Assembly: GCA_964515625.1 (NCBI GenBank)
Contig: CAZEUI010000004.1
Span: 1-31,599, forward strand
Length of the DNA stretch: 31,599 bases
Reading direction: 5' to 3'
From: an uncultured Candidatus Saccharibacteria bacterium
Lineage (GTDB): Bacteria; Patescibacteriota; Minisyncoccia; Phycocordibacterales; UBA918
Shown: positions 589 through 29,596 of the stretch, one piece after another
Position numbering within the stretch: position 1 is the stretch's first letter
Layout: the number at the start of each line of letters is the position of its first letter
The notes under the pieces: generated by a model
What the model was told of the DNA's origin: nothing
Databases searched by the model: none
What the model saw: only the letters and a program-made list of their open reading frames with translations
Made by a program: the position numbers and the translations under genes

Positions 589-2883
589 TTATTCTCCTTC
601 AGTTATATTAACAGCCTCTTCTTTATTTTTGGATCCACCTTCCATCCTTTTTATTTCATTGGCGATAATTTTAAACTCAGAACGTTTCTTTTCTGTATTG
701 GTCATTTTAACACCGTCACGTCCATAATTTTTCTCCAGATTTTTCCGTGCAGAGCTGGCAAGGTGACCTTGAGATTGGACTGATGCAACACCAGCTACTA
801 ATCCTGCTGTAACACCTAACGTACCTGCTCCTACAGCAAGTCCTGTAGATGAGCCAATAAGTCCTCCTGATAACTTGTTTCCTGCACGGTTCCAGAATTG
901 TTCTGATTTCTCAAGTTCATCCATTTGTGCAATAACGTTAGCGTATTTTGTTTCGGATGTTGCATACTTTAAAGCATCTTTAGCTTTAGATTCTAGGTCA
1001 GAGATTCTAATCTGAGTCGCTTCTTGTAAGGTTTCATACTGAGTATCATAAGTTAATAGCTCCTTATTTTTATTTTCAATTTCTTGTTGAGCTTTTATTT
1101 TATCTTTATTTGAAATATTAGGGGTAGCTGCTTCTTTTTGTAGAGTTTCTATTTCACTTTGAATATCACTTTTTCCTGAGGCGTGACTAAGTATCACATT
1201 CTTGGTATTAAGGTCAGCTTCGTACTTTGTAATCTTGTCTTTAAGAGAAGCTAGTTGACTGGTAGTTTTAGTTGAGCTTGCTACATCTTGCTTGTATGCA
1301 AGTTTTGCATCAGAAATTTTCTTTTTCTGAGTGATTACCTGATTTTTAATGTCGCCAACTGAAACATTTTTATTATCCCTTAATTGTTCAGCCACTTCAC
1401 TATACTCTCCCTTTTTTAGTTCAGATTCAGCTTTAATTTCTCTTGATCTCGCACTAATCTTTGCCCTAACTACAGGGTCATTCATGTCAATATCAGCTTC
1501 CGTATCTTTAGCAAATTTTTCTTTAGCAGTATTATTATCCTTGATAGTCTTAGAGTAACCACCTTTCTGACCTGTTCCGATACCTAAGGAATTTCCAATA
1601 TTTCCAACATTACGTGCATCAAAACTAGAGCTTGCTACTACTTGAGAAGCTTTAAAAGCCCCTTTTCCTATAAGACTATGTCTACTAGCATAGTTTTTAA
1701 ATGTTTCATTTTCAGTGGCTCTTTGAGCAAGACTTCCAACTCCCCTACGTCCAGCCCAAGCGGCAGTTCCGAAGGTTGCACTACCGACACCTCTTTGCAT
1801 CTTTCGACGCATGTTGGTACCCATTTTTAATGCAGCATCTGCACCTTGAGCACCCATTTTCTTAGCAATAACAACGGCTGATAATAGAAAAATTATAGCA
1901 ACGATAAACGGTGGAATCGTATTTTCAAAATTCGCAATAATCTCGTTACCATCACCACCAAAAACTTTACCAAATTGGGCAGAAGAGTTGCCATAAAAAG
2001 CATTAATTATCACAGCTGCAAAGTAGATTAGTAACAGATACGCCGGTGCGAAAAAAGCTCGGCCAAGGAATCCGCTCCAATATCGCTTGCTATAACTTTC
2101 CATTTGAGGGAAGACCCAGCCGATGAACATGAATGGTGATAGTATCATATATAGACAAAGCACTGCATATCGAATAATAAGTAATATTCCGCCCACTGCA
2201 AAAACAAAAGAGGCTACGATAAATAGTATTGCAGAGCCAAAAATGTATCCCCATGCAGAGCTTTTACCTCTGTCTTTCATTGTTTCTGGTAGTCCTCCAA
2301 AAGCACTTTGAATACCAAGGCTATTCATGAAAGTCTTGGAGACATTAGGACCCTTTTTTCCAGTTTGTGGATCTGTTGTTTCAGCAAATCCACTATTCAC
2401 TATTTGAGTTGCTGTAATGTTTGAGACATCAACAACAAACTTAGTGATAAATAAACTAAAGTTTACTAAAAGGGCTGCTAGTATCAAGTGTACCAGCCAT
2501 CTTCGGGTGTTAGAATCATCACTATTCAAGATTATTTTAAACCCGATGTAAACCAGTGCAAAAATAAAAGTTAGGTTGAATATGTCCCGAACACTTTCCC
2601 AAAGAGTGTCCACAGCCTGTCCTACTCCAGAACTAAGAAAAGATTGTCCAAATCCGATGACAAAAAACTCAATCCCTGAGTCCAATATCATGCCTGAAAG
2701 ACCAAGAAGGCGACCAAAAACGTTATTTACCAGCCCCCAGACTATATCCTCTATAACGGTAAAGGCTTGTACTTGGGGAGCAGATATTGTAAATATAAGA
2801 ATAGAAAGAGTCGCAATGAGTGACCATTTTTTGGCGGTACTCCCTTTTATGTTTAGTAATAGTTTTTTACTTAGTAATCTCAT
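589..2883 (-). CDS. VirB6/TrbL-like polytopic membrane protein with a long C-terminal coiled coil (764 aa)
   Basis: Signal-like N-terminus ending VQA. About 6-7 hydrophobic segments with CPR VirB6-like motifs (W..VRDIFNLTFIFALVYIGFKIIL; AALLVNFSLFITKFVVDVSN; IIRYAVL..YMILSPFMF..WVFP). Then a K/E/Q-rich heptad region and a Gly-rich hydrophobic tail. Confidence 0.7.
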   Translation of the reverse strand: MRLLSKKLLLNIKGSTAKKWSLIATLSILIFTISAPQVQAFTVIEDIVWGLVNNVFGRLLGLSGMILDSGIEFFVIGFGQSFLSSGVGQAVDTLWESVRDIFNLTFIFALVYIGFKIILNSDDSNTRRWLVHLILAALLVNFSLFITKFVVDVSNITATQIVNSGFAETTDPQTGKKGPNVSKTFMNSLGIQSAFGGLPETMKDRGKSSAWGYIFGSAILFIVASFVFAVGGILLIIRYAVLCLYMILSPFMFIGWVFPQMESYSKRYWSGFLGRAFFAPAYLLLIYFAAVIINAFYGNSSAQFGKVFGGDGNEIIANFENTIPPFIVAIIFLLSAVVIAKKMGAQGADAALKMGTNMRRKMQRGVGSATFGTAAWAGRRGVGSLAQRATENETFKNYASRHSLIGKGAFKASQVVASSSFDARNVGNIGNSLGIGTGQKGGYSKTIKDNNTAKEKFAKDTEADIDMNDPVVRAKISARSREIKAESELKKGEYSEVAEQLRDNKNVSVGDIKNQVITQKKKISDAKLAYKQDVASSTKTTSQLASLKDKITKYEADLNTKNVILSHASGKSDIQSEIETLQKEAATPNISNKDKIKAQQEIENKNKELLTYDTQYETLQEATQIRISDLESKAKDALKYATSETKYANVIAQMDELEKSEQFWNRAGNKLSGGLIGSSTGLAVGAGTLGVTAGLVAGVASVQSQGHLASSARKNLEKNYGRDGVKMTNTEKKRSEFKIIANEIKRMEGGSKNKEEAVNITEGE

Positions 2884-2947
2884 GTTTATATCTTAACACC
2901 CTTCGCTACAATTTATTTGATTTATGTTAGTTCAGTTCTCGTGTGCT

Positions 2948-4930
2948 TTAAAGCGCTCTTTCTGTTTCGTAAACAGAATTAAATAACATCTGTTCTGACT
3001 CTATGTCTGCTTCTCTTGCAATGTCCTTCTCCTTATCAGTTGTTATTTCTGCGTTCGAAATCTCAATATTATTGATGTTTGAAATCGTCCCTGACCACAC
3101 AGACTTGGACGAATTTATCGATGTTTCGAGATAATAGGTGTTTGAGTTGAAGATTGCTATTCTTCTATCTTTCTCGGCCGCATTTGCGGTTTTGAAAGTT
3201 AAAGATTGCTGTGACCCCAAGTTTGATCCGTCACCATTGATTAATTTAGTTATTGACAGGGTGTCTCTATTGGTTTTATTTATTACCGTAATCATATCAG
3301 CCCTGTCCCCTGTCGTCATTTCTATAAAAGTTTTGTTGATAGAGTTGGTGTCACTAAATGGTGTATAGAGACAGACAGATAGTGAGTTGTTGATTGTGTG
3401 TCCAAATGTGTTTGTTCCATAGTCTGAGCAGGTGTAACTTGGGGTTGCTATAGCAACCTGTTGACTGAGTGTATTGTCTACATCTAAGCAGTGGAAAGAT
3501 TGTGTTCCATCATCAATAAATACTTTGTTGTTGGTGAGGCAGCCAGCTTTAAATATACTAATCTGATTTTCATCAAACAGGTTCTGGGTCAAGTATGGAT
3601 AAAGCATGGTTGTTCCATAAGGTTCATTCATGACAAGACTAGTGTTTATTGATCCTGTGCCTCCAATATGATCCGATGGTATTGAAGTTAGAGAATTGAT
3701 ACCAATAGGTTGTATAGCAAAGGGTGGCTTACTGTAGTAAAAGTTTCCGACAGTATTGTAATTTTTTTGTATAGATAAGGTATTCATCATCTCAACAAGT
3801 TGTGAATCATATAAGATTGAATTTGCCTCCTCTTGCGGTGTTTGAGGTGTTGTTGCAACAGGAGTGTTAATGTTCCCAAAATTATTACTGTTTAAATTAT
3901 TAACAAAATTTGAATAAGATCCTGAAGAGTTACTACTAGAGTCTCCCATGATGACGGAGATGCCATTGTTTACCACATGATTAACAACACTGCTTAATAA
4001 AGATCCAATGATCTCATCAATCTCGTCTGCTTGAACTAAAGACTGACGTCCTGAGTCAAGGTTGAAGCTTAACGCATCTTGAATTATCTTTCCTGGTGTT
4101 GATACAAAACATTCTTGTGTGGCTCCAGATCCGGTACATTTTTTATCTGACATAAATCCTGACCCAAAACTTAAAAATGACATTTCTTCATTTGCTGCTT
4201 TTAAGATCCGGTTATTTAGAGAAATTTCTGCTGAAATACTCGCTCCATATGGTGTGTAGACTTGTGGAGAATTTGTTACATCAAACCAGTCATTCCACCC
4301 GCCTTTAGAAAATGAATCTTTTCCACCGCTTAAGAAATCTTTAAAATTTTCTACATTATCAATAATATCGTCAAGGTTACATCCTCTTGCAGAAGTTGAG
4401 TTTGATTCCATGCTAGCACCAAAATTTAAAGCTAATGAAAGCTTTACATCAAGTCTAAACGGTTCACAGATAAGTGCCTCAAAATCATCACCAATGAAAT
4501 CAAGAAAAGTATTGGTTGCTGTATTTATTAAAAAGTTTTGAATATCCTGTACAAACATAGGTCCCCCATCAGGAAAACCATTTGCTGCCCAGCTGACAAC
4601 ACTCTGCAATAATGTATTGACTACTCCTTTAGCTATAGACCAAGCTAAACCATCTAGTACATACTCTTTATACTTTAGAGCAGTTTCCATTGCTGCACTT
4701 ATATGAGTATTTGCTTGAGTCAAGTAAGTATTTGCTTCAGTCAAAGTTTCTGTAATGTTCATCCAGATGAGTTCAAGTTGTTGTGTTATCTGTAGGGGTA
4801 GTGTAGCAACAACTGCTTCAGCAGGCTTTATGTTGTTTGCTTGATGTGGAACATAAACAGCCATCGTTCCAAAGATTAGAAACACAGTAGCAACGATACT
4901 TTTCTTTAGGATTGTAAAAAATGTATTCAT
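2948..4930 (-). CDS. Exported or membrane-anchored hypothetical protein (660 aa) of the T4SS-like locus
   Basis: N-terminal signal/TM ending AEA. Cys-containing N-half (ICEPFRLDVKLSL, GGWNDW, SDKKC...ECFVSTPG, LVQADEIDEI) and an N/T/S-rich C-half. Confidence 0.8.
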   Translation of the reverse strand: MNTFFTILKKSIVATVFLIFGTMAVYVPHQANNIKPAEAVVATLPLQITQQLELIWMNITETLTEANTYLTQANTHISAAMETALKYKEYVLDGLAWSIAKGVVNTLLQSVVSWAANGFPDGGPMFVQDIQNFLINTATNTFLDFIGDDFEALICEPFRLDVKLSLALNFGASMESNSTSARGCNLDDIIDNVENFKDFLSGGKDSFSKGGWNDWFDVTNSPQVYTPYGASISAEISLNNRILKAANEEMSFLSFGSGFMSDKKCTGSGATQECFVSTPGKIIQDALSFNLDSGRQSLVQADEIDEIIGSLLSSVVNHVVNNGISVIMGDSSSNSSGSYSNFVNNLNSNNFGNINTPVATTPQTPQEEANSILYDSQLVEMMNTLSIQKNYNTVGNFYYSKPPFAIQPIGINSLTSIPSDHIGGTGSINTSLVMNEPYGTTMLYPYLTQNLFDENQISIFKAGCLTNNKVFIDDGTQSFHCLDVDNTLSQQVAIATPSYTCSDYGTNTFGHTINNSLSVCLYTPFSDTNSINKTFIEMTTGDRADMITVINKTNRDTLSITKLINGDGSNLGSQQSLTFKTANAAEKDRRIAIFNSNTYYLETSINSSKSVWSGTISNINNIEISNAEITTDKEKDIAREADIESEQMLFNSVYETERAL

Positions 4931-4940
4931 AAGATAAAAA

Positions 4941-5831
4941 TTAATTCTGTGCTACTGGTCCAAAAATATTGATTGCTAATCCTGGATCATCCATAGAAAA
5001 CCCACTACTAAACGGTGCTACGGCGGTGTAGATGTTTTGTAGTGAATTATGAAGACTGACAGCATCGTTTTGATAATGTTTTAGACGAAGAAGAGTGACA
5101 ACAGGGTCAGAATTAAAGAGTGACATTGCATAGATGTCATAATAGATAGCTTCAAATGTGTTAATGAGGTCTAAATGTTCCTTCGCCATAATTGAAGGGA
5201 CTGGTAAAATGAGTGTGTTGTCTCGGTATTGTTCATAGACGTTAGCTACAGCCTCGAGCTCTTTTATTTCCTTAGGGTTATTATTTCTAACGGCTTCATT
5301 CAAGATATCAAGTTCTCCTCGTAATGTAGGGTCACTGTTCTCAGCAATTATAGTGATTAGGCTGTTTGTGTATCGGATAACATCAGCCTCTTCCCCGCCG
5401 GGAATAATGATAATATCATCGATTGTATATAGTTTTTGTTGTGTTTCATCAAACAGATAGTCAACAGTGTTGTCTATGATCTCTAAATCAGTTTCTCCAA
5501 ATGGTGCATAGATACGAGAACCTAAAATACCCTCCATAAACTGAAGACTCATCTTTCCTGTAAGAGTGTCTGGTGGTGTGTAAGTTGATGTTGCAACATC
5601 AACTATTATGGCATCAGTAGTTATAAACTCGTCTCTCCAGTCTTCTATTCCGTTTAAATCATTATCGGAGACTGTTATAGACATTCTTTCTTGAATCTGT
5701 GGAGTGAGGGAAGCTGCTACAAGTTGGGTTGATTTTGGTTTTTGTAAATTGCTGACTGTGTAAGCTCCTGCAACTAAAGCAAAACCTATGATTGCAGCTC
5801 CAACAATTTTTGAATTAATTTCTGCTTTCAT
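4941..5831 (-). CDS. Membrane-anchored acidic hypothetical protein with a DxDxNG Ca-binding-like motif (about 296 aa)
   Basis: The second ATG (5831, MKAEINSK) is preferred because TATAAT lies 9 nt upstream. N-terminal TM (IVGAAIIGFALVAGAY) and DNDLNGIEDW. Confidence 0.75.
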   Translation of the reverse strand: MKAEINSKIVGAAIIGFALVAGAYTVSNLQKPKSTQLVAASLTPQIQERMSITVSDNDLNGIEDWRDEFITTDAIIVDVATSTYTPPDTLTGKMSLQFMEGILGSRIYAPFGETDLEIIDNTVDYLFDETQQKLYTIDDIIIIPGGEEADVIRYTNSLITIIAENSDPTLRGELDILNEAVRNNNPKEIKELEAVANVYEQYRDNTLILPVPSIMAKEHLDLINTFEAIYYDIYAMSLFNSDPVVTLLRLKHYQNDAVSLHNSLQNIYTAVAPFSSGFSMDDPGLAINIFGPVAQN

Positions 5832-5933
5832 ATGCCTTATATTATATATTAGATTCATCTGAATTTTTTCAATATAGATAGATATGTGTATGAATCTGTG
5901 TATAAGCTGTTGATTAAGGTGTCAGTTGTGTGT

Positions 5934-8862: not shown

Positions 8863-9496
8863 TTAACTAATGTTAGTTGGTTTCTTGGCTCCTTTAATAA
8901 TAGGAAGCTCATCTTTGCAATATTTTTCCCAGTATGATTGCCATTCATCTCGAAAAACTACGTAGATTTCCTTATCACACCATTTTCCGTCTCTAAAAAT
9001 CTCTTTTTCAATAGTAGCCATGTGCCGATAGCTACAGTGTGTTGCGTAGCGTTTACTGGCAGTATTTGGTCAAATTATTGTTGAAGTAACTTTTCGTAAG
9101 CCGAATTGATTGAATGCGTAGTTTAAAAGTAACATTTTATCAGCAGTCGCATAACCTCTTCCTTTATGTTTATGTGACCCGATCAGAGTTCCTGTGATAG
9201 CATTTGCGTTAGTAATATTAAACAATAAGGGAAATGTTGCCAATTAACTTTCCTCTAGCTGTGCAAATCGCTACACATATATTATGAAGATTATTTTCTG
9301 AGATAGAGTCAAACTAGCCTTTTTGAACTTTCCGGTTCATAGGTTGACCAACTGATATGTAATTACTGTTCAGCGGGTCATTAATCCATTTTGTAAAAAG
9401 TGGAATATCTGATTCTTCAACAGGGCGTAAAATTACCTTTTTATTCTGTCTCCAGATAACAAAATTCTTTTTATTAAGCTTCTTCATTATGTTCAC
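8863..9496 (-). pseudogene. RimJ/RimL-type GNAT N-acetyltransferase pseudogene
   Basis: Hand translation: ...VILRPVEESDIPLFTKWINDP...QKG*(TAG, 9314-9316)FDSISE...KLIGNISL / frameshift near 9225 / FNITNANAITGTLIG...KGRGYATADKMLLLNYAFNQFGLRKVTSTII*(TGA)PNTASKRY...EIFRDGKWCDKEIY...TNIS*. Three lesions. Confidence 0.85.
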
Positions 9497-9693: not shown

Positions 9694-9869
9694 AGTCCGG
9701 TACCAGTGTTGGTATACGGATGGAGAACTTCAACTCCAAATTACACTATGCACGGAAGTATTGTCTGAACTGGCGGCGAGTCCATAACTGAAGGCGTATT
9801 CAACAAAATTCTCAAAAAACTGATGATGACTCTAATGAGTCTTGTTATCAAATATCAAATAATAAAGTA

Positions 9870-10889
9870 ATTGTTCCTAGCCACATAAAAGTTGTTGGTG
9901 AATTAATTTTCATATTTCTAGTTATTGTTGTACCTGTCTCTGTGCAGGCAGGTTTCTTTAGTAGTTTCTTTAGTAGTGATGAAACCTTATCGGAAACGGT
10001 TGAGCACTCTTTAAATGTGTTGGCTGTTGACATACCATTACTGACTGCTTTGCAGAATCCTAATCCTCTTGGTGCTAGAGGTGGAGCTGAGGTTGTTGTC
10101 GATGAGGATGTTCTTGTTGCGACAGGTCCTGTAGGTGCTGATGTTATTGCTGAGCAAAAAAGTAACGACGGGGAGATTAGGGTCTATACAGTGCGGGATA
10201 ATGATTCTTTGTCAGAAATAGCAGACATGTTTGGGGTGACTACTAATACTATTATGTGGGCAAACGACCTGACTAAAGCAACAGGGATACATCCTGGAGA
10301 CACGCTAGTTATCCTACCTGTTGTTGGTGTAAGGTATTCTGTGAAGAATGGCGACACTATTGGTTCAATTGCTAAAAAATATGAAGGTGATGTTGAAGAA
10401 ATACTTGCCTATAACCAACTTATTTCTGCTAAAGATTTGTCAATTGGTGACATTCTTATTATTCCTGGCGGGGCAATGCATGCTGCTCCGGTAAGAGTTG
10501 CTGCACAAGCTCAGCCTGTGCGTGTGTCAGGAACCTCGATTGCTTCTGTTGGGTTTTCACACCCAGCTCCTGGTTCTGTTAGGACTCAAGGTATTCATGG
10601 TTATAATGCTGTAGATTTAGCTAACAGTATGGGTACTCCTATTAAAGCAGCTGCCTCTGGTGAAGTTATTGTATCTAAAGATTCTGGTTGGAATGGTGGT
10701 TACGGTCAATATATCGTGATAAAACACGCTGACGGTACTCAAACATTGTACTCCCATCTTTCTAGTAATTCAGTTGGGGTTGGTGCTTATGTTTCCCAAG
10801 GTCAGGTTATAGGAGGAATGGGAAGTACTGGCAAATCTACTGGATCACATCTGCACTTTGAAGTGCGTGGTACTAATAATCCGTTTTAA
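9870..10889 (+). CDS. LysM-LysM-M23 metallopeptidase (peptidoglycan hydrolase); start codon uncertain
   Basis: Two LysM repeats (YTVRDNDSLSEIADMFGV; YSVKNGDTIGSIAKKY) and an M23 domain (HGYNAVD, GGYGQYIVIKH, TLYSHL, GSTGKSTGSHLHFEV). The in-frame signal peptide IKVVGELIFIFLVIVVPVSVQA lies upstream of the GTG called at 9942, so the true start is further upstream. Confidence 0.88.
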   Translation: MVPSHIKVVGELIFIFLVIVVPVSVQAGFFSSFFSSDETLSETVEHSLNVLAVDIPLLTALQNPNPLGARGGAEVVVDEDVLVATGPVGADVIAEQKSNDGEIRVYTVRDNDSLSEIADMFGVTTNTIMWANDLTKATGIHPGDTLVILPVVGVRYSVKNGDTIGSIAKKYEGDVEEILAYNQLISAKDLSIGDILIIPGGAMHAAPVRVAAQAQPVRVSGTSIASVGFSHPAPGSVRTQGIHGYNAVDLANSMGTPIKAAASGEVIVSKDSGWNGGYGQYIVIKHADGTQTLYSHLSSNSVGVGAYVSQGQVIGGMGSTGKSTGSHLHFEVRGTNNPF

Positions 10890-10898
10890 TACTTTAGT

Positions 10899-10939
10899 TA
10901 TAAAAAGAACTAAACCAGTAAGGTTCAGTTTTTTTTATA
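10899..10939. terminator. Imperfect bidirectional hairpin between the convergent M23 and comM genes
   Basis: TATAAAAAGAACT..AACC-AGTAA-GGTT..AGTTTTTTTTATA, with A and T tracts on the two sides. Confidence 0.5.
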
Positions 10940-12464
10940 AAGGTACTCTATATTGCAAAGCTTCAAGTATGTGACCTGTTTCAATATCACTACTATTGTC
11001 TAAGTCTGCAATAGTTCTAGCAACTTTAATCAGTCTATGGTAACTGCGGGGAGAAAGATTTAAGTTAGCGCTGGATACTTTAAGTATACCTTTCACTTCT
11101 GGAGAGAGTGAGATAATCTTTTCAATATCGCGAGCAGACATCCCTGAGTTTGTGTTGGTTTTAGTTTTAGAAAACCGTTTCAATTGCCGAGCTCTCGTGT
11201 TTGAAATTTTCTCACGTGCATCACTAGTCTCTTCATTTTTACTTGGTAGAGAGGTTAATGTTTCGTACGGGACATGGGGAACTTCTAGCCAGAGGTCAAT
11301 CCTGTCCAGCATTGGTCCAGACACTTTGTTTTTATATGTCTCTTGCATGGCTCTAAGTAAATCAGTAGTGCCATCCTCACTTCCTCTGTAGGGATTCAGA
11401 GCTGCTATTAAGATAAAATCAGCCGGGAATTCTGCTGTACCTTGTATTCGGGAGATAGAAACCATTCGGTCTTCTAGGGGCTGACGAAGAGCATCTAGCG
11501 ACCGTCTTTCAAATTCTGGAAACTCATCCATGAAAAGAACTCCATTATGAGCCAGAGTGATTTCTCCAGGTTTTGGGCGCGCCCCTCCTCCGACTAAAGA
11601 GGTATGTGAGGCTGTGTGGTGCGGGCTTCGGAAAGGTGGTCGTGTAGTGATTGTGAAATCATTGCTGGACAATGAGTAAATAGCCGTTACTTCCAAAGCT
11701 TCTTTTCTTGTGAGTGGAGGTAGTAAGGATCGTAAGGCGCGCGCAAGCATTGTTTTTCCTGTTCCAGGAGGTCCTACCAACATCACGTTATGTCTACCGG
11801 CTGCTGCAATAATAAGCCCCCTTTTAGCACTCTCTTGTCCCTTAATGTCTTCAAGTTTTATGTCACTTTCGTACCAGTCGTCAGTAATGATTGTTGGGGT
11901 TTGAATGGGTAGTTTGAAGATGCTTTCTGTTTCAGAGTCAGATTTTTTAATATTTATATGAGAAATTACATCAACCAAGTTTGAAGCAGGGTGGATGATT
12001 ATGTTGTCAATCAGAGCTGCTTCTCTAGCATTTTCTACAGGTATGATTATTTCGGAAAAACCAGCTTGCTGTGCCGTCATTACAGAATTTAAGATACCTT
12101 TCACAGGTCGTAATGTTCCATCTAAGCTAAGTTCCCCAATATAGATTCTCTGTGTATCGTCTATCTCTATCTCTTTAGCTGCTACTAGGTAAGCGATGGC
12201 AATAGGTAAATCAAATAGAGGGCCTTCTTTTTTTAGGTCTGCGGGAGAAAGTGAGATAACAATCTTATTATTTTTTGTTTTAGGTGAATCATATCCAGAA
12301 TGTTTAATAGCACTACCTACTCGATCTTTAGATTCATCAACAGCTTTACTTGCAAGTCCTACTACAGAAAAAGCGTGCAAGCCACGCGATATATCTGCTT
12401 CAATTGTTATCACTGTGCCAGAAAGGATATCTGGTTGAATGGTGTTTATTTTTGCTACAGACAT
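10935..12464 (-). CDS. comM: YifB/ComM Mg-chelatase-like AAA+ ATPase
   Basis: FSVVGLASKAVDESKDRV, GPPGTGKT, PFRSPHHTAS, GEITLAHNGVLFMDEFPEF, LRQPLED, GPMLDRIDL, LSPRSYHRLIKVARTIADL. Confidence 0.95.
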   Translation of the reverse strand: MSVAKINTIQPDILSGTVITIEADISRGLHAFSVVGLASKAVDESKDRVGSAIKHSGYDSPKTKNNKIVISLSPADLKKEGPLFDLPIAIAYLVAAKEIEIDDTQRIYIGELSLDGTLRPVKGILNSVMTAQQAGFSEIIIPVENAREAALIDNIIIHPASNLVDVISHINIKKSDSETESIFKLPIQTPTIITDDWYESDIKLEDIKGQESAKRGLIIAAAGRHNVMLVGPPGTGKTMLARALRSLLPPLTRKEALEVTAIYSLSSNDFTITTRPPFRSPHHTASHTSLVGGGARPKPGEITLAHNGVLFMDEFPEFERRSLDALRQPLEDRMVSISRIQGTAEFPADFILIAALNPYRGSEDGTTDLLRAMQETYKNKVSGPMLDRIDLWLEVPHVPYETLTSLPSKNEETSDAREKISNTRARQLKRFSKTKTNTNSGMSARDIEKIISLSPEVKGILKVSSANLNLSPRSYHRLIKVARTIADLDNSSDIETGHILEALQYRVPL

Positions 12465-12519
12465 AGGAAGTTATCTTCTTGTATTAAATATGGTTACTTA
12501 ATTGCTTAGTAAACATGTT

Positions 12520-14265
12520 TTAATTAGATTTCAGCAGGTCTAAAATTTCTTTAAAATCGTTTAAATTATTAGAAATAATAGCTGTATTATCTATGATTCC
12601 ATAAACTAGAACCACCTCGTTATTATTGTTTCTGACTACCCTAGAGTCGATACCTTTAGTGGTTCTGTCTGTGAAAACTGGTATTTTTATATCTAAGTTT
12701 GGATACAAAATACTCAAGTCATTTATCATAGAAGTTTCCCAAATAAAGAAACTACCCTGTATTGACTCAAAGTCTGTGAATTTTAAAAGGATGCTTGGGA
12801 GACCGTCATTAATAGCTATAAATCTGACTGAAGTTAATGACTGCTCTAAGATTGGTGAAGTGCTGAGTCTCAGAAGATTGAATATATAAGCAGGTGAAAT
12901 CTCGGTTTTATCAGGAGAGATTAAAACAATTTCCCTTACCCCGCCCTGACCATTTGTTGACAAATCTTTTATTAGGTCAGGTAATTTATCAATGTTACTC
13001 GTAGTTAGGTTGAGTGGTGATAGTGAGGCTTTTTTTAAGATTAAGTCAATGCTTATTTCATTTACTTGTGTTGTGTTTTCAGATAAATTCTTCATAACAA
13101 TCATTGTAATGAAAATTATCACAATAAGGGCGATAATTATTATTAGAATATTAAGAGTTGTTTGATTAGTTTTTATCTTTCTACTTTCAGTCTTTTTTTC
13201 TACATTAAGAATAATATTCTGCTCTGCTACCGTGCTGTTATCAGGTGTTGCAGGATAGTTTTTAGTATCGGATCTTTCTACTATGTAGTCAGAATTCCAT
13301 CTACTTTCGTCTAGGTCAGAGTATTCTTTTGTGATTTCTTCGCCTCGAATCTCTTGTTCGACTGTAGTTTCAAGCGTTTCCTCTAAAGGGGGTTTAGGAA
13401 TAACCTCCTTTATTTCTTGTGGTGGAAGAACTTCTACTGGTTCAATTTGGGTTTCGATAAGATTCGTTGGTGGTATTTCTTTTTTGACAGGAGCAGACTG
13501 TTTTTTGTATTCAGTCTTTACATCTAGGGTTGAGTCAGAAGTTTCTAATAGTTTGAAGCTTGGCTCAGTATAAGGTGACCATGATATTTCCGGGTCATTA
13601 ATTGTTATTTCAGCTTCGTCTCCTTTTCTATTTTTGATTCTGTCCTTCAAAGTCTTGCTTGAAGTTGTGAACATTACTCCGCTTTGTGAAGTGGCTTTTT
13701 GGATGACACCCTTTCTTCGTTTCGTTTCAGGGATTTCGAATTTTGGAACACTCTTTCTCTTCCTGTCGCGTTTAAGTTTATTGAACCACTCCTTAATAGA
13801 TTTAATAATAGAAGGGACTACTTCAAAGCTGTCACTTTTAGTGTCAGTAATAATGGTGGCATCATAACCGATATTTAGTTTTTTCTGTTTCGGTAAGATT
13901 GTAATCTTATTCGTATTATCGTCTTTTGTTGCCAGTTTGTCTTTATGACTAGCCTCTACTTTTTTTTGAAGTTCATGAAAAGAAGGGGTGTTTTGAGAGC
14001 CTGACTCCTTCTTTGTGGGTTTAATTATGACTGGTTTAGGTATTTCTGGCCGGTCGGATTTTTTAGGAGCTGTAATATGAGATACTTTTATAACTTTTTC
14101 TTTTCTCTCTTTTTTTACCTTAGTAGCGGTGTGTTTTTTTACAGGTTCAGAAACAGCGCTTTTAAGGTCTTCATGTTTACCTTGCTTACGCCTCTTTCGT
14201 TCAGTTAATAGGTCACGAGCATAGGTGTGAATTGCTGTTGGCTGTTGTCTAGTCTGTCTGCTCAT
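12520..14265 (-). CDS. Single-pass membrane hypothetical protein (581 aa)
   Basis: K/R-rich N-terminus, E/P/T-rich linker, one TM (ILIIIIALIVIIFITMIVM) and a folded-looking C-terminal domain of about 185 aa. Confidence 0.8.
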   Translation of the reverse strand: MSRQTRQQPTAIHTYARDLLTERKRRKQGKHEDLKSAVSEPVKKHTATKVKKERKEKVIKVSHITAPKKSDRPEIPKPVIIKPTKKESGSQNTPSFHELQKKVEASHKDKLATKDDNTNKITILPKQKKLNIGYDATIITDTKSDSFEVVPSIIKSIKEWFNKLKRDRKRKSVPKFEIPETKRRKGVIQKATSQSGVMFTTSSKTLKDRIKNRKGDEAEITINDPEISWSPYTEPSFKLLETSDSTLDVKTEYKKQSAPVKKEIPPTNLIETQIEPVEVLPPQEIKEVIPKPPLEETLETTVEQEIRGEEITKEYSDLDESRWNSDYIVERSDTKNYPATPDNSTVAEQNIILNVEKKTESRKIKTNQTTLNILIIIIALIVIIFITMIVMKNLSENTTQVNEISIDLILKKASLSPLNLTTSNIDKLPDLIKDLSTNGQGGVREIVLISPDKTEISPAYIFNLLRLSTSPILEQSLTSVRFIAINDGLPSILLKFTDFESIQGSFFIWETSMINDLSILYPNLDIKIPVFTDRTTKGIDSRVVRNNNNEVVLVYGIIDNTAIISNNLNDFKEILDLLKSN

Positions 14266-14328
14266 TTATATGTATAGTATCGCACGATTATTGGGATTTG
14301 TTAGGGGTCTTTTCATTTTTATGGGGGT

Positions 14329-15530
14329 TCATATTTTATCACAGGTAGTCAACCTCCCTCTCCCCTTTTTTCTATTTTTAGCAAAATCACGACCAATTTG
14401 CTCTTCATTAATTTTGTCTAGTTTTGAAAAAGCCCCATAAGTAGTCAGTCTACTAATGATGACATTTATCAGGTCTCAAACTTCATAAACTTTTGTTAAT
14501 AAATGGATAGTTTCAGCAACGTCTGATGGTGCTCCATCCTTTTTCGTGATAAAAACACCAACTCCTTCTTTAATAGTAATCGCTCCTGCTTCAGAATCAT
14601 CCTTAATTTTGTTTATCATTTTCCCTCCACCCTTACGTCCAGCTGAATAGCTGTGACTCCTTCTGTCATTCCTACTACCTTAAGGTCCCCGTCGCCTAAC
14701 TTATCTTCAGAACCTTGAATTTGGTACTCCTCCATCCATCAAAGGTGATGGTTGATGTGTATACATAACCTATTGAGCTTGACGTTACTTAAAAGCGTTT
14801 CGGATACTAATCGAATTGTGTATGGAAAGACATCTCGACTTGGTATTATTGGCATGAGAGCTTTTTCTGCTAATGCACCATGCTCGATCATTCATCGATT
14901 AAAACCTCCAACACGACCAGTTTTCCCACTGAGTATGGTGGAAAATTATAGTGATGAATAAAATCTTTTCTCTCATTCTTAGATTCTATTGTGTCAATCA
15001 GTTGAGACGACCCCGGACCTCTAAGTGTTAATGTTAAAAAAATATGTGTATCATCTCGGTAGAAAATTCCAGACCTATGTAGGGCAGGTGAAATATTTCC
15101 TGCTTGTAAAAAAAGATTTCTAACTTCATGCACCCCTCGCCCATCAGCACGTCGCCCTCTCCTTAAGTGCTCCCCGATGCAACTCCTTGTCAATTTCATT
15201 TTTAAAAAAGTCGATGATGACTACTTGAATATCATGTCTGATATTTTAAAAAAGGTTTAATTGTTCGAGCAGTCATTTTCGCGGACAGGCTTGCCCTTCC
15301 TTCGTAAAAATCTGCTTTCGAGTATTTCGCCTACTGCATAAACTTCTCTTCAAGCTCGACGGATAATGGGAGGTGGTTAATATTAGATTTTCCCGATTGC
15401 TCATAACAACAATTACAAAATAGTAGTGTCTTCACATTTGAGTAAAACCGAACTGGTGGCTTCTGATGTTAATGTGGTAAATATATCGTTATTCTCCAAA
15501 ATGATAATGTTAGATTGTTTGTGAATTCGT
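14329..15530 (-). pseudogene. pnp: Polynucleotide phosphorylase (PNPase) pseudogene, heavily eroded
   Basis: Colinear fragments in shifting frames: LTSEATSSVLLKCEDTTIFVIVVMS; PLSVELEEKF/YAVGEILESRFLRRKGKP; RADGRG..EVR; HHYNFPPYSVG; [12 protein letters not shown]....[10 protein letters not shown]; MDGGVP; [23 protein letters not shown]; GGGKMINKI (KH); S1-like RLTTYGAF. About 1.2 kb against roughly 2.1 kb for an intact gene. The 5' boundary is approximate. Confidence 0.92.
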
Positions 15531-15540
15531 TAATATTTAC

Positions 15541-15581
15541 TTTTGTAAAAAGCACAGCTCAAGGCTGTACTTTTTACAAAA
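15541..15581. terminator. Hairpin between NYN and pnp
   Basis: TTTTGTAAAAAG-C-ACAGC-TCAAG-GCTGT-A-CTTTTTACAAAA: 12+5 bp stem with one G-U pair on the minus strand. Confidence 0.6.
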
Positions 15582-15588
15582 AACTTTT

Positions 15589-16200
15589 TTACAAAAGATC
15601 ATCAGTGTCAGTTCCTACAACTTTTTTCAAAATTGTTTTTTTAGTTTTTGAACGAGACGGTTTCATCTTTCTTGCTCCTGATTTTCTTGCTTGACGAAAT
15701 CCGAGTAAGAATTTTTTAGGGTCGTCATCCATATCTATAAAATCATCTAGTACTGCTCTAAGTCCAGATGAAGAAGAACGTCCAAAAGTGATAGCTTCAA
15801 CTTGGCAGCCTAAACTTTTAAGATGTTCGACTAGTGGAATAAAATCACCATCCCCGGTTGCTAGTACAATTGCGTCAACTTTAGGTGCAACCTTAATTGC
15901 ATCTACTGCCATACCTACATCCCAGTCAGCTTTTTTTGCTCCTCCATAAAAAATTTGTAAATCTTTAGTTTTGATTTCAATACCAACTTTTTCAAGTGCT
16001 TCAAAAAATGCGGACTCTTCTCCACTTTCTGTGTTCACTACATATGAAACTGCGCGAATAAGTTTTCTTCCTTGAACAGCAGTTTCTAGAACTGCACCAA
16101 AGTTTACTTTTGATTTGTATAAATTCTTAGCACTGTGATATAAGTTTTGTGTGTCGATAATGACAGCTACTCTTTGTTCGGGGTGTCTTGTTACTCCCAT
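15589..16200 (-). CDS. NYN domain (LabA/DUF88, PIN-like) putative ribonuclease
   Basis: VIIDTQNLY, KKADWDVGMAVD, LATGDGDFIPLV; basic C-terminal tail. Confidence 0.92.
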   Translation of the reverse strand: MGVTRHPEQRVAVIIDTQNLYHSAKNLYKSKVNFGAVLETAVQGRKLIRAVSYVVNTESGEESAFFEALEKVGIEIKTKDLQIFYGGAKKADWDVGMAVDAIKVAPKVDAIVLATGDGDFIPLVEHLKSLGCQVEAITFGRSSSSGLRAVLDDFIDMDDDPKKFLLGFRQARKSGARKMKPSRSKTKKTILKKVVGTDTDDLL

Positions 16201-16314
16201 AAATTATTAAATTAAATATTAAAAAGTTTTTACTATTTGTAAAACATGTCTACACAAACCACCTTTCAGAATCTTACTCATTATAAATGAAAAGATGATT
16301 GTGGCAACTATAGC

Positions 16315-16359
16315 GTGAAACAAACAATCGCTCCAGTGTGGAGCGATTGTTTGTTTCAC
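16315..16359. terminator. Perfect 21-bp inverted repeat downstream of rpsO
   Basis: GTGAAACAAACAATCGCTCCA-GTG-TGGAGCGATTGTTTGTTTCAC. Confidence 0.75.
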
Positions 16360-16372
16360 ATTAAAGTTGACC

Positions 16373-16639
16373 TTATCGTTTTAGTCCCAGCTTTTTGATG
16401 AGAGATTCGTAAGTATTAAAATCTTTTCTTGTAAGATATTTCAAGTGCTTTCGACGATCAGCTACCATTTGAAGTAGTCCTCGTCGTGAGTGAAAATCTT
16501 TCTTGTGCTTTCGCAAATGATTAGATAATTCCTCTATTTTACGGGTCAAGAGAGCAACTTGTGCTTCTGGTGATCCAGTGTCTGACTCATGACGACGAAC
16601 GTCTTTAAGTGTGTTTTCTTTAATTCGCTTTGTTAGCAT
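16373..16639 (-). CDS. rpsO: 30S ribosomal protein S15
   Basis: [43 protein letters not shown]; 88 aa. Confidence 0.98.
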
Positions 16640-16803
16640 AGATTTTTATATGTTACGCAACTGGTCGTATGTATCCACTTTTGCGGTACCACCTAAGTGC
16701 GGTAAGTAAATAACCTGTGAAGGTTTCACGTATAGTAGCATAGAATATTTAAAAATCAACCCCTATGGTAAAATGTTTTACATCTCCGTGTAACAGATTT
16801 TAT

Positions 16804-25682: not shown

Positions 25683-26843
25683 TTATATTCTTATCTTAGG
25701 ATAAGCTCCGTATACTCCACTTTGATACTTGGCGAAATAGTTATCCTCACTGCGAAACTTCATTTCGTCTAATCGAAACACCTCGCTAACATTATTTTCT
25801 TTCTCGACCAAGAATATCTGCTGAGCATCAAATTTCTTCATGAATTCTAAGGAGTGAGATGAGAAAATAAACTGTTTCTTACTTTCAGCTAGTTCGTCAA
25901 CAATAAACTGAATCAGTTTATTGACTGCTTCTGGATGTAGTCCAGTTTCTATTTCGTCAGATACCATTACAGTACCTTCACTAATAAAAAATATTATGCG
26001 ACCTAGTTCATAAAATAGTGCTCGTGTACCCCGAGATTCATAATCGATAGGTAATAAATATTTCTCCGTGCCTATTATATGGTTAGCTTTGATGTCATAT
26101 TTACCGTCAGAGTTTTTTGTGATTAAAAAGTCTTCAATACCAATATTAAAATCACGTATTATTTGCTCCATCCTCGTTTTTACTTCTGGAGATTTAAGGT
26201 AAGTTTCGGCAGCTAACTCAAGTCCGGTTATGTTGTGTATAGTTTCCCCACATTCAGAAAAATTTATTTGAAATAAACTAAAATACTCACCAATTTCACT
26301 CAGTATTGGTATGTCATAACTAGTATTAATAAATGCTACAGCAGATACACCGTTTTGTATGGACGACATCTTCTTTTTTGTGACACCAGTAAAATATTTA
26401 GGATTCAGATTAAATTCTCTCTCATTTCTGTCTATTAGAGTAGTAAACCGAGATCTTTTTTTAAGAGACTTAAAAGATACAAACTCCTTAATAACTAAGT
26501 AGTTTCTAATCTCAAGATAAATTTTAAATAGATGAGTATCATTTTCAAATTCAATCTCCACCAAACTAGTGTTATTTTTTATGAAAGAATAATTTTTAAA
26601 TGGCGTAAAAGTAATACCTTTAGCTTTATTGGAGACTGTTAATATATAGCTAATGAAGCCGAAAATCCTCATAGCATTTGTTTTACCAGAGGCATTTGAA
26701 CCGGCAAAACCAGCTACTTTTGAGATTAAAGTACCGTCATAGGCTTCGTAGTAATCACTACTTTTCTTTTTAGTGGTTGTAAAATCTATTTCCTGCCTAT
26801 CTTTAAAAGAATAAAAGTTCTCAAATGAAATTTTTCTTATCAT
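25683..26843 (-). CDS. RloA-like (AAA_21 / ABC-type) ATPase of a defence pair
   Basis: ISFENFYSFK, GSNASGKTN, ESRGT signature, VSDEIETGLHP, FIFSSHS, C-terminal YQSGVYGAYP. Confidence 0.85.
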   Translation of the reverse strand: MIRKISFENFYSFKDRQEIDFTTTKKKSSDYYEAYDGTLISKVAGFAGSNASGKTNAMRIFGFISYILTVSNKAKGITFTPFKNYSFIKNNTSLVEIEFENDTHLFKIYLEIRNYLVIKEFVSFKSLKKRSRFTTLIDRNEREFNLNPKYFTGVTKKKMSSIQNGVSAVAFINTSYDIPILSEIGEYFSLFQINFSECGETIHNITGLELAAETYLKSPEVKTRMEQIIRDFNIGIEDFLITKNSDGKYDIKANHIIGTEKYLLPIDYESRGTRALFYELGRIIFFISEGTVMVSDEIETGLHPEAVNKLIQFIVDELAESKKQFIFSSHSLEFMKKFDAQQIFLVEKENNVSEVFRLDEMKFRSEDNYFAKYQSGVYGAYPKIRI

Positions 26844-26929: not shown

Positions 26930-29596
26930 TTATAACTTCCCAACCATTCCTTCCATGTCCTTATGTGGTGCTACATACACCACCTCGCCTACCGCTTCAA
27001 AATGTTTCCTGCCAGACTTAATTTTTAGTTGTTCCATTAGCGATAAGTCTTCCAGTCTGTCTGTCCCTTTTGTTTCAGTTACCAAATATAACTTCTTGTC
27101 CCCCATAAACACAATTGCCCAGTCGGGGTTGTAGCTTCCTAGTGGAGTCTTGATTTTGAATTTTGGTGGTAACTTCATGTAAAACTCAATCTCGTCTCTG
27201 TCCTCTAGTTCAGCCGCAAAGTCGTTTTCTATCTGCGAATCAAAAGCTACGTGGTCATAAAGAGTTTTGTCTTTATTTTGTACTACTCGAACGTTATCTA
27301 TATACGATTCAATTTCTGCATCCTTAAATATTTGCATATCGTACACCTCTTCACCAATCTTCTCGTATTTGATTCCATCAATAATCATCTCTTGTTTAGT
27401 TCGACGGATTTCCTGCACCATATTATCCATAAAGTGTTGTGGGTTGGTGCGTAGTCTAGTCAACGCTTCCTTGCCGGCTAAGTTCAGAATAGTTGCGATA
27501 GTGTCAGGGCGGAGTTGGGTATGATAAGAAATATACTTCATTATATTCGGTATTGGTAGAGACTGTTTAAACTGCTTGCCTTTACCAACTTTCCGCACAG
27601 TAGTTAAAATTCCTTTTCTAGCATCAAATTGTAGTGATGCCACATCGGTTCTAATCCTTGGTGCTACCGAACTAATTTCCCCCACTGCTTCAGCCGCCTT
27701 TTTAACAAAAGTCTTATCACTAAAACTAACGGAATAATTAGTCTTGTATTTTATTCGTTGCCAGAGTTCCAGGAATTTTTCATCAAGTTCCCATTTTTTC
27801 TTCAGCTTCACCTGCTGTCGCTTGTATTTATTCTTTATTCTACCGCCATCAAACTTAACCCCAGTTTCTTCCTCAATCTCACCTTGCAGTCCTTTGGCAA
27901 AAGTATCATAACTTTCATTTGCAATCACCGTTAGGACATTGATTGAAGTATCGAAAATACGCACTCCTTCGTGGTTCACCGGCAGTCTTAATCCCCGTCC
28001 AATCTCCTGTCGCTTTTTAACGTAAGCCCCTGTTTCATTTAGAGTACAAATCTGAAAAACATTTGGATTATCCCAACCTTCTTTTAGAGTAGAGTGAGAA
28101 AAGATAAATTGTAAGGGCTCATCTGCTGAAAGTAGCTTCTCCTTGTCTTTCATTATTAGGGCGTAAGTATCGCGGTCGGCTTCAGTAGTGCCTCTAGTGT
28201 CCTTGTAGCCACCCGTTTTGTCTTTAGAAAAATAGCCGTCATGCACTAGTTCCACCTTTGGTAGTTTTATTTTTTTGTATTTAGGTAGAGCTGACAATTC
28301 ATTATAGATATCCTTAAACCACTGCGCATAAATACCACCTTCCCCCGCTTCATGGTTGCGGTACTTAACAACTGAATCAATAAAAAACAACGACAAAACC
28401 TTAATCTTTTCCCCTCGCTCCTGAAACTTCCGCATTTTTTCTAAATGCTCACTGACAGTGTCGTATATCTGCTGTTTCCGTATTTCATCATCAAGTTCAC
28501 CAATTCCTTTGCGGGTAGATACTATTTCACCATTTTGAAACTCCACTTCTTCACTACCAGCATCAATACTACTCACAATAAACCCGTCGTATGCCGGCAA
28601 GAATCCAGACTCTTCATACAAATTACATTCCTTAGTGGCTCGTGTTTTGTGTACTTGGGTTTTGATAGACTTCTTCTTAATAACACCCTTATTAACCACT
28701 TCAATTTCCAGAGTAGCGACAATGGCAGTTTTGCTCGCTTTAATACTTTTTACTTTCACATAAGCATCATTCTGCGCTCCTTCCTCTCGGACTGAAGCTA
28801 CTTCAATCCGTTTAACTAGCCCTTGGTCATAGGCATCGACAGGTGTTAAACGGTGGATTTGATTATATAAATTTCGGTGGGTGGCAGAATAACGTAGAGT
28901 ACAAAGTGGATTGAGTGATTCTATAGCGTTGCGTCGAATGTCCGTCTCCATATTTTGCGGTTCGTCAATAATCACTATCGGGTTGGTTTTTTGAATTAGT
29001 TCCATCGGTACGCCGATGATAGTGTCACTAGCTTTATTCATGACTCGATTTACCGTGTCAAAAGCTTCGATGTTTATTAGCATGACGCTCAAGTTGTTGC
29101 TGGTAGCAAAAGCACTCAGATCACTCGGACGTTTACTATTGTAGGCGAAGAAGCTGTAGTTTGGGTTGCCGTAAAGTGTCCGCAGGTGGTCACGAGTAAT
29201 TTCTAGTGACTTCAACACCCCTTCACGAATAGCCTTACCCGGTACTACAATAATAAACTTACCAAAGCCGTATCGCTTATGGAGTTCAAAAATGGTTCGT
29301 AAATAAACATAAGTCTTGCCGGTACCAGTCTCCATTTCGATGGTGAAATTTCGTCCTTGGTAATCCTCTTGTTTTGTAAGCTTGTTTCGCTCTTGAACAG
29401 CGTGCAGGTTTTTGATTATGGCGTCTTCTTCTATCTGTAGTAAATTACCCACGCCCATTCCGTTTTGAAATAAACCCAGACCGTTAGAGCTGAAAACATC
29501 GTTTCCACCGGTAGTTTGTTGTCCGTCAAATAAGTCTGTCACGCTTTTAATAGCGTCTAACTGATATTCTTGATGGGGATCAAATTGCAGTTTCAT
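26930..29596 (-). CDS. res: Type III restriction endonuclease subunit Res
   Basis: EMETGTGKT, IIDEPQN, LRYSATH, FIFSHSTLKEGWDNPNVFQICTL, QEIGRGLRL, C-terminal YNPDW...ETKG (PD-(D/E)xK); uninterrupted 888 aa. Confidence 0.95.
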   Translation of the reverse strand: MKLQFDPHQEYQLDAIKSVTDLFDGQQTTGGNDVFSSNGLGLFQNGMGVGNLLQIEEDAIIKNLHAVQERNKLTKQEDYQGRNFTIEMETGTGKTYVYLRTIFELHKRYGFGKFIIVVPGKAIREGVLKSLEITRDHLRTLYGNPNYSFFAYNSKRPSDLSAFATSNNLSVMLINIEAFDTVNRVMNKASDTIIGVPMELIQKTNPIVIIDEPQNMETDIRRNAIESLNPLCTLRYSATHRNLYNQIHRLTPVDAYDQGLVKRIEVASVREEGAQNDAYVKVKSIKASKTAIVATLEIEVVNKGVIKKKSIKTQVHKTRATKECNLYEESGFLPAYDGFIVSSIDAGSEEVEFQNGEIVSTRKGIGELDDEIRKQQIYDTVSEHLEKMRKFQERGEKIKVLSLFFIDSVVKYRNHEAGEGGIYAQWFKDIYNELSALPKYKKIKLPKVELVHDGYFSKDKTGGYKDTRGTTEADRDTYALIMKDKEKLLSADEPLQFIFSHSTLKEGWDNPNVFQICTLNETGAYVKKRQEIGRGLRLPVNHEGVRIFDTSINVLTVIANESYDTFAKGLQGEIEEETGVKFDGGRIKNKYKRQQVKLKKKWELDEKFLELWQRIKYKTNYSVSFSDKTFVKKAAEAVGEISSVAPRIRTDVASLQFDARKGILTTVRKVGKGKQFKQSLPIPNIMKYISYHTQLRPDTIATILNLAGKEALTRLRTNPQHFMDNMVQEIRRTKQEMIIDGIKYEKIGEEVYDMQIFKDAEIESYIDNVRVVQNKDKTLYDHVAFDSQIENDFAAELEDRDEIEFYMKLPPKFKIKTPLGSYNPDWAIVFMGDKKLYLVTETKGTDRLEDLSLMEQLKIKSGRKHFEAVGEVVYVAPHKDMEGMVGKL

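Follow-up and report, generated by a model that had tools for sequence, protein, structure and literature searches.

The pnp gene, which encodes the RNA-degrading enzyme PNPase (polynucleotide phosphorylase), is present in 94.85% of 505 high-quality CPR genomes and is among the genes kept in at least 90% of them (PMC12641178, Supplementary Table 3). The same table gives 96.8% for rnj, 99.0% for rnc, 16.0% for rnr, and 0% for rph. PNPase is one of a small number of ribonucleases retained this widely. When pnp and rnr are tabulated together, 59 genomes have both genes, 420 have pnp only, 22 have rnr only, and 4 have neither; for rplA and pnp, 336 genomes have both, 4 have rplA only, 143 have pnp only, and 22 have neither, and the rplA-less set consists mainly of Paceibacteria (PMC12641178). 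I calculated from these counts that rnr is found in 22 of the 26 pnp-less CPR genomes versus 59 of the 479 pnp-positive ones (12%; odds ratio 39, Fisher p=2e-15), and that 22 of the 26 pnp-less genomes also fall in the rplA-less set. Thus, the loss of pnp is already visible in published data as a recurrent, Paceibacteria-centred, and rnr-coupled event. The classical PNPase-less bacterium is Mycoplasma, which keeps an RNase R family enzyme (PMC1635327). For Patescibacteria, a 2026 preprint proposes that PNPase converts host RNA to NDPs and counts PNPase together with Adk in 78% of genomes (10.64898/2026.06.21.733656).

Here, a pnp locus was analysed in a 31.6-kb contig of 31,599 nucleotides (the window, meaning the whole stretch of DNA analysed). 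Judging from the relatives retrieved with its NYN protein, the organism is a Paceibacterium (Patescibacteria/CPR), and the sequence occurs in hydrothermal-vent metagenome runs. The NYN protein search yielded 80 species-representative loci, all from Patescibacteria of the Paceibacteria/'Parcubacteria' type (Nomurabacteria, Kaiserbacteria, Paceibacterota, and similar). The nearest loci, L001 (Ca. Nomurabacteria HK-STAS-PATE-30), L002, L012, and L083 (a contig of run ERR10493310 from the Logan assembly), show 78-86% amino acid identity in conserved proteins. In a collection of 5.8 billion proteins, the best NYN match was 85% identical and the best PNPase match to the read-through of the relic described below had ~69% local identity; within these limits, no closer sister genome for a finer dating of the loss was found. 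An exact-sequence look-up of the NYN protein gave no record, and a metagenome contig scan found no relative of the 581-aa neighbour.

In the relatives, a conserved block reads XerC-S15-NYN-pnp-X-(DksA)-ComM-M23 peptidase-UvrD-KsgA. The window has, on the minus strand, rpsO, the NYN gene, a 1.3-kb stretch with no ORF of more than 103 codons, a 581-aa gene, and a ComM/Mg-chelatase-like gene (Table 1). The 581-aa gene has no Pfam family; its homologues lie after pnp in L001, L002, and L084 and directly after the NYN gene in L083. A hairpin similar to that of the window, followed by a T-run, is found after the NYN gene of L083. The neighbours of 203, 581, 509, and 652 aa are all intact and 78-86% identical to those of the relatives. 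The window is densely coded, with 84% in open ORFs whose stop codons are mostly TAA, and tRNA and Rfam scans of it gave no match. Between the 581-aa gene and the ComM gene, a 124-aa DksA/TraR zinc-finger gene that is present in L001, L083, and L084 is cleanly absent, and only a 55-bp spacer (12465-12519) is left.

Table 1. Features of the pnp locus in the window. Residue numbers are those of the intact L001 PNPase.
Feature	Position	Strand	Remarks
rpsO (ribosomal protein S15), intact, 88 aa	16373..16639	-	Pfam Ribosomal_S15 E=2.7e-33; 80-85% identical to relatives
NYN/LabA-DUF88 family protein, intact, 203 aa	15589..16200	-	Pfam NYN, positions 1-145 of 145, E=1.2e-32
Palindromic terminator-like hairpin, gap between NYN gene and pnp relic	15554..15568	.	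Consensus scan; putative function
pnp pseudogene, full recognisable extent	14325..15481	-	376 codons, 16 blocks, 11-12 frame changes, 2 TGA, 5 deletions
PH1 remains (residues 19-116)	15213..15481	-	Six blocks, five frame changes, 6-aa deletion
Junction of 531-bp in-frame deletion (residues 117-293)	15213/15212	-	Same across four parameter/reference sets
End of helical domain and second (catalytic) RNase PH core (residues 294-457)	14722..15212	-	Five frame changes; includes 103-aa ORF
In-frame TGA in place of second Arg of GGFNRRMIGHG motif	14892..14894	-	
Second-PH fragment with GxEDxxGDxDFKV motif (residues 482-510)	14634..14720	-	Between 24-aa (upstream) and 61-aa (downstream) deletions
KH (from GGGK motif) and first half of S1 (residues 572-650)	14395..14631	-	tblastn E=2e-14
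Second in-frame TGA, KH-S1 boundary	14476..14478	-	Gly in orthologues
S1 tail (residues 675-694), weakly recognisable	14325..14390	-	After ~24-aa deletion; placement parameter-dependent
581-aa membrane protein, intact, fast-evolving, function-unassigned	12520..14265	-	Usual gene downstream of pnp
ComM/Mg-chelatase-like gene	10935..12464	-	

It was found that the stretch between the NYN gene and the 581-aa gene is the remnant of a pnp gene. In tblastn searches of the window with the 708-aa L001 PNPase, three minus-strand matches were obtained, for residues 309-390 (62% identity, E=1e-28), 572-647 (E=2e-14), and 19-105 (E=5e-5), and these are colinear with changing frames. No PNPase-like sequence was found by tblastn elsewhere within the 31.6-kb window. 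When the fragments are stitched into a read-through, the product matches Pfam RNase_PH (E=1.4e-9) and the NCBIfam PNPase equivalog NF008805 (E=8e-66) with 222.8 bits, below the 471-bit cut-off, while TIGR03591 gives 209.3 bits against a cut-off of 525. The read-through matches 3405 database proteins, and the source-named ones among them are polyribonucleotide nucleotidyltransferases. Only the stitched read-through is detectable in this way: four individual ORF pieces gave no Pfam match even at E<=1, and a word-indexed protein search with the 103-aa piece returned only itself.

The anatomy of the relic was resolved by a frameshift-tolerant alignment of a protein profile, built from 18 close intact orthologues, to the DNA. 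Of ~708 codons, 376 were recovered in the correct order, beginning at 15481, and the relic of ~1.2 kb has 57% of the length of the 2.13-kb intact gene. An intact orthologue has PH1 at residues 13-143, RNase_PH_C at 146-212, KH at 557-614, and S1 at 622-689; mapped on these limits, colinear fragments of all four domains PH1-PH2-KH-S1 are present in that order. A preliminary description of this DNA, which had been made from the letters and the ORF list, had proposed a fossil pnp at the native rpsO-NYN-pnp locus, with every domain surviving only as ordered fragments, two TGA stops, and a little over half of the normal length. All of this was borne out, and the alignment places both stops at exactly the positions given there. 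The locus itself is syntenic with 49 relatives that have an intact pnp there, its neighbours are intact, and the decay is specific to pnp. The remark that the ORF track holds only a 103-aa piece is also correct, since the ORF at 14888-15199 is both the longest in the relic and the sole one of at least 90 aa. An uninterrupted ORF of ~700 aa, as expected of a PNPase, is not found.

At least three internal deletions had been claimed as well, and those are real, although the total is five. The largest removes 177 residues (L001 117-293, junction 15213|15212) and takes the end of PH1, the whole RNase_PH_C, and most of the helical linker domain. It had been placed directly after a motif TIKPFF; the motif reads TIKPFL, and the deletion lies 12 codons past it, behind DIQVVII. 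The others remove 24 residues after LMDGGVP (L001 458-481), 61 residues after AIQLDV (L001 511-571), 6 residues in PH1 (L001 85-90), and about 24 residues within S1. The three largest junctions and the number of frame changes stayed constant with two penalty sets and three references, and only the S1 tail (14390-14325) was unstable. In sum, 11 deletions (-879 nt) stand against 4 insertions (+8 nt). Such an excess of deletions over insertions is the classical deletional bias of bacterial pseudogenes. In reductive genomes such as those of Rickettsia and Mycobacterium leprae, pseudogenes decay with the same bias, and the relic resembles them in its many small indels and larger deletions, with no difference in kind.

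The second, catalytic PH domain is incomplete. The second Arg of FNRR is replaced by the TGA codon, the SNGSSS motif is broken by a frameshift, and 24 aa are gone after LMDGGVP, while the Asp motif is still readable. By analogy with the E. coli PNPase, NRR and SNGSSS are presumably the phosphate-binding motifs and the Asp motif the metal-binding one.

What remains of the sequence has also drifted. Over the 376 columns that can be recovered, identity of the relic to the orthologues is 52-61% (61% to L001), whereas the intact orthologues are 73-84% identical to L001 on the same columns, with a mean pairwise identity of 75.5%. Of 168 columns that are invariant in the 18 orthologues, 44 (26%) are replaced in the relic. 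This suggests, as a rough estimate from the sequence comparison, about 0.13 neutral substitutions per site since inactivation; the figure assumes that ~75% of random substitutions are non-synonymous, and it is only approximate because the choice of the best frame by the alignment biases the identity upwards. The relic would then be old for a bacterial pseudogene, yet it would postdate by far the split from the closest relatives known. The long PNPase-free past that the preliminary description ascribed to the lineage is only partly upheld. An age of ~0.1 neutral substitutions per site is high for a bacterial pseudogene but small beside the divergence from the closest sequenced relatives, each of which has either retained pnp or lost it in a separate event.

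Is an empty pnp slot common in Paceibacteria? I compared the slot between the NYN and ComM genes among the related loci. The slot holds an intact pnp of 700-745 aa in all of the 21 closest species-representative (GTDB) loci, as it does in L084 (713 aa) and L085, while L081 has an open pnp of 486 aa up to the contig end. In total, an intact pnp follows the NYN gene in 49 of the 80 genome loci, and in several relatives pnp lies 1-4 kb from the NYN gene without being adjacent to it. In L083, 163 bp with a terminator hairpin separate the NYN gene from a 586-aa gene, and pnp has left no trace. Synteny is likewise kept, with no pnp between NYN and ComM, in 23 additional loci, which fall in at least 4 other places of the tree. 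Thus, 24 of ~77 informative Paceibacteria loci have no pnp in the slot (L022, L023, L026-L028, L031, L032, L035, L038, L040, L043, L044, L047, L049, L051, L055-L057, L061, L069, L071, L076, L077, and L083), in at least five places on a rough tree; these counts cover the NYN-ComM slot, where loss and relocation look alike. No other pnp fossil was detected at E<=0.1 in the NYN-to-ComM gaps of all pnp-less loci, in which the gap is one intact ORF. Among 86 loci, ongoing decay is therefore seen in the window alone. When the other non-coding gaps of the window were compared with the relatives by tblastx, only the leader of the M23 peptidase gene matched.

L083 is marginally the closest relative of the window by several proteins, and in a rough neighbour-joining tree it groups with the pnp-positive L001 and L002. 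An ancestral loss common to L083 and the window was rejected on the ground of this grouping, and also because a relic drifting since that split (~80% amino acid identity in conserved proteins) should be unrecognisable. The loss in L083 appears from the sequences to be independent of the loss in the window.

Compared with the intact Paceibacteria PNPases (NF008805/TIGR03591; 708 aa in L001 and 713 aa in L084), the relic occupies the same slot after rpsO-NYN and keeps the same PH1-PH2-KH-S1 order, but no frame is open, 2 stops and 11-12 frameshifts interrupt it, and deletions have taken 43% of its length. L083 and the 23 other empty-slot loci have the same neighbourhood without a functional pnp; they show no trace of the gene, whereas the window keeps a relic of 1.2 kb. 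The organism also resembles the 26 of 505 CPR genomes without pnp (PMC12641178) in being a CPR bacterium of an rplA-less lineage without a working native pnp. Those cases, however, are whole-genome presence/absence calls, while here the decaying gene is visible on one contig. With Mycoplasma (Mollicutes), it would share a reduced genome without PNPase, the RNase R family enzyme being a feature of Mycoplasma (PMC1635327); Mycoplasma belongs to a different phylum, its loss is ancient, and no relic is left.

The orthologous position, the multiple independent disabling lesions, and the lost constraint on invariant residues are those of a unitary pseudogene. Accordingly, my preferred reading, with a probability of roughly 0.92, is that the native pnp became inactive in this lineage and that deletions are now erasing it. 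Selection on pnp would have been lost, and nonsense mutations, small indels, and larger deletions would have followed with a strong deletion bias. With ~43% of pnp gone and no frame of more than 103 codons, a functional PNPase would be impossible from this locus. The relic would be without any function and is probably a transcribed spacer that separates the NYN gene from the one downstream. The loss would be lineage-specific, fairly recent relative to the divergence from the sequenced relatives, and one case of the recurrent disappearance of pnp from the slot in Paceibacteria.

Of the other explanations, the one that survives best, although I consider it unlikely, is that a second intact pnp, duplicated or horizontally acquired, took over elsewhere in the genome, so that the organism is not PNPase-less. 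The data are a single 31.6-kb contig with the rest of the genome outside it, the position of pnp is changeable as seen in the relatives with a pnp at some distance from the NYN gene, and some of the 24 slot-empty loci may carry pnp elsewhere. Against this, pnp is normally a single-copy gene, and the window holds no other PNPase-like sequence. Other pnp fragments in the same metagenome match the relic only over a conserved motif of ~40 nt, and one of them is also found in a sample where this organism is absent. A true loss is, moreover, well precedented in the class, given that 26 of 505 CPR genomes have no pnp and that most of these are rplA-less and Paceibacteria-like (PMC12641178). It is predicted that the genome of the window organism has no other pnp.

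Are the lesions real? The possibility that the frameshifts and deletions are sequencing or assembly artefacts of a low-coverage contig, and that the real gene is intact, draws on the depth of only 5-7x, on the contig-level nature of the data, and on a contig break inside the relic. The preliminary description had named a mis-assembly as a point to be checked, and the check was made on Logan assembler contigs of public runs, at a depth of 5-7x. Logan contigs of runs X1 and X2 showed 0 differences from 13800-16700 at a word depth of 5-7x, so every base is reproduced by an independent assembler. The relic is spanned by two Logan contigs that overlap by only 22 nt (14910-14931), and that join has no independent spanning; the break lies inside the HHYNFPPYSVG motif, where the pnp genes of other organisms in the sample share ~40 nt. 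No intact allele at >=80% identity was found in the contigs of four runs. The same relic occurs in run X3, which represents a second sample of the study, as a 228-nt contig at depth 3 from a strain ~1% different; this contig carries C>A at 15085, and one more C follows 15132 in a CCCC run, which would shift the frame of the 103-aa ORF and add a frameshift. Sequencing error does not explain the locus because the lesions are clustered (~12 small indels and five deletions in 1.2 kb, beside ~26 kb of neighbouring ORFs that are open) and because the 879 missing nucleotides and the replacement of 26% of the invariant residues could not be produced by indel errors. An artefact is highly improbable.

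Expression by recoding (TGA as sense, programmed frameshifting), or a functional mini-protein such as the 103-aa ORF, can be practically dismissed: both in-frame stops are TGA and preservation is best (62% identity) in the open 103-aa piece, but TGA ends two intact genes, ORFs of 650-890 aa have no in-frame TGA, and with TGA read through there remain 11-12 frame changes and a loss of at least 286 residues that affects PH2 and S1 in part and removes most of PH1 and the helical domain, while the 103-aa ORF is part of one PH domain only and its frame is shifted by the extra base in X3. An alternative genetic code was rejected on the same two observations, that TGA terminates intact genes and is absent inside the long ORFs. 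TGA is therefore a genuine stop here, and recoding does not rescue pnp.

If the native pnp is a unitary pseudogene, which enzyme replaces PNPase? The intact NYN nuclease next to the relic had been suggested as a candidate. NYN/PIN-like domains are predicted endonucleases and not 3'-5' exonucleases, and the NYN protein shows equal conservation (60-85% identity) across all 85 related loci, whether or not these have pnp; a compensating role is not supported. In 84 of the 85 related loci, all those reaching upstream of NYN, its gene follows rpsO, and where there is a pnp, it precedes that gene. The family (LabA/DUF88) has more than 6500 homologues at E<=1e-60 and is very conserved and uncharacterised. 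Since rnr is present in 22 of the 26 pnp-less CPR genomes, RNase R is a better candidate for the substitute than NYN. From these published co-occurrence counts, the likeliest substitute 3'-5' exoribonuclease is predicted to be an RNase R encoded elsewhere in the genome, and it may supply the 3'-5' exonuclease activity here.

Several other features of the window were recorded. CPR genomes are commonly portrayed as streamlined and poor in pseudogenes, yet the window holds two to four damaged genes. A probable second pseudogene lies at 8863-9496 on the minus strand as ORFs of 60, 57, and 52 aa, whose joined translations match Acetyltransf_3 of the GNAT family (27.4 bits, cut-off 25.4, E=6e-6); the site has other genes or nothing in the relatives, and the X3 strain has 6 differences in 375 nt there. 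The mod methyltransferase gene of a Type III R-M system is apparently split on the minus strand by a single-base frameshift at 30070-30203 (ORFs 30070-31386 and 29598-30203). Its 438-aa ORF matches residues 55-463 of 618 of the Mod structure 6k0w_B (E=3.5e-70) and ends in ...EGSEARKCWV*, and the continuation in the next frame is AGYETISDIAIER; at a depth of 5-7x, the split may be a one-base assembly error. The res gene (26930-29596, 888 aa) is intact. With a gene for an AAA_21/AbiEii-like ATPase at 25683-26843, the Type III R-M genes make up a small cluster of defence genes at the window's right end. The M23/LysM peptidase gene (9942-10889, plus strand) has an in-frame TGA at 9789 where the L083 orthologue has Leu, and the next ATG, GTG, or TTG is the one at 9942, where the N-terminal membrane helix ends. 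The gene therefore either starts at a rare ATT or ATA codon or no longer encodes the signal anchor. On the minus strand at 589-5858, there are three consecutive large ORFs of 764, 660, and 305 aa without a Pfam family; among the related loci, they have only weak partial matches (22-30% identity) in the distant L061 and L077.

The relic is, most probably, a real and well-preserved instance of an ordinary process: the loss of pnp in Paceibacteria, and pseudogene decay in a reduced genome. For the annotation, one pseudogene should stand in place of a 103-aa 'hypothetical protein'. A more speculative idea, which I regard as possible but doubtful, is that the organism is a Paceibacterium midway in a swap of phosphorolytic (PNPase) for hydrolytic (RNase R) 3'-5' decay, a switch that, by the survey of the slot, would have occurred at least five times in the class. 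If so, the fossil would be, of all the loci examined, the sole example that can be dated, and the pnp-less lineages would have given up an RNA-feeding, NDP-yielding energy metabolism, provided that PNPase is its core (bioRxiv 10.64898/2026.06.21.733656). Lineages without pnp are natural exceptions to the model in which PNPase converts host RNA to NDPs. The pnp slot has been emptied repeatedly in the class, and the window would provide a datable loss of PNPase in a phylum where the enzyme is otherwise nearly universal. The decayed pnp at its ancestral locus indicates that PNPase is dispensable in at least some Paceibacteria, and it offers a concrete lineage for asking what replaces this enzyme, with RNase R as the predicted answer.
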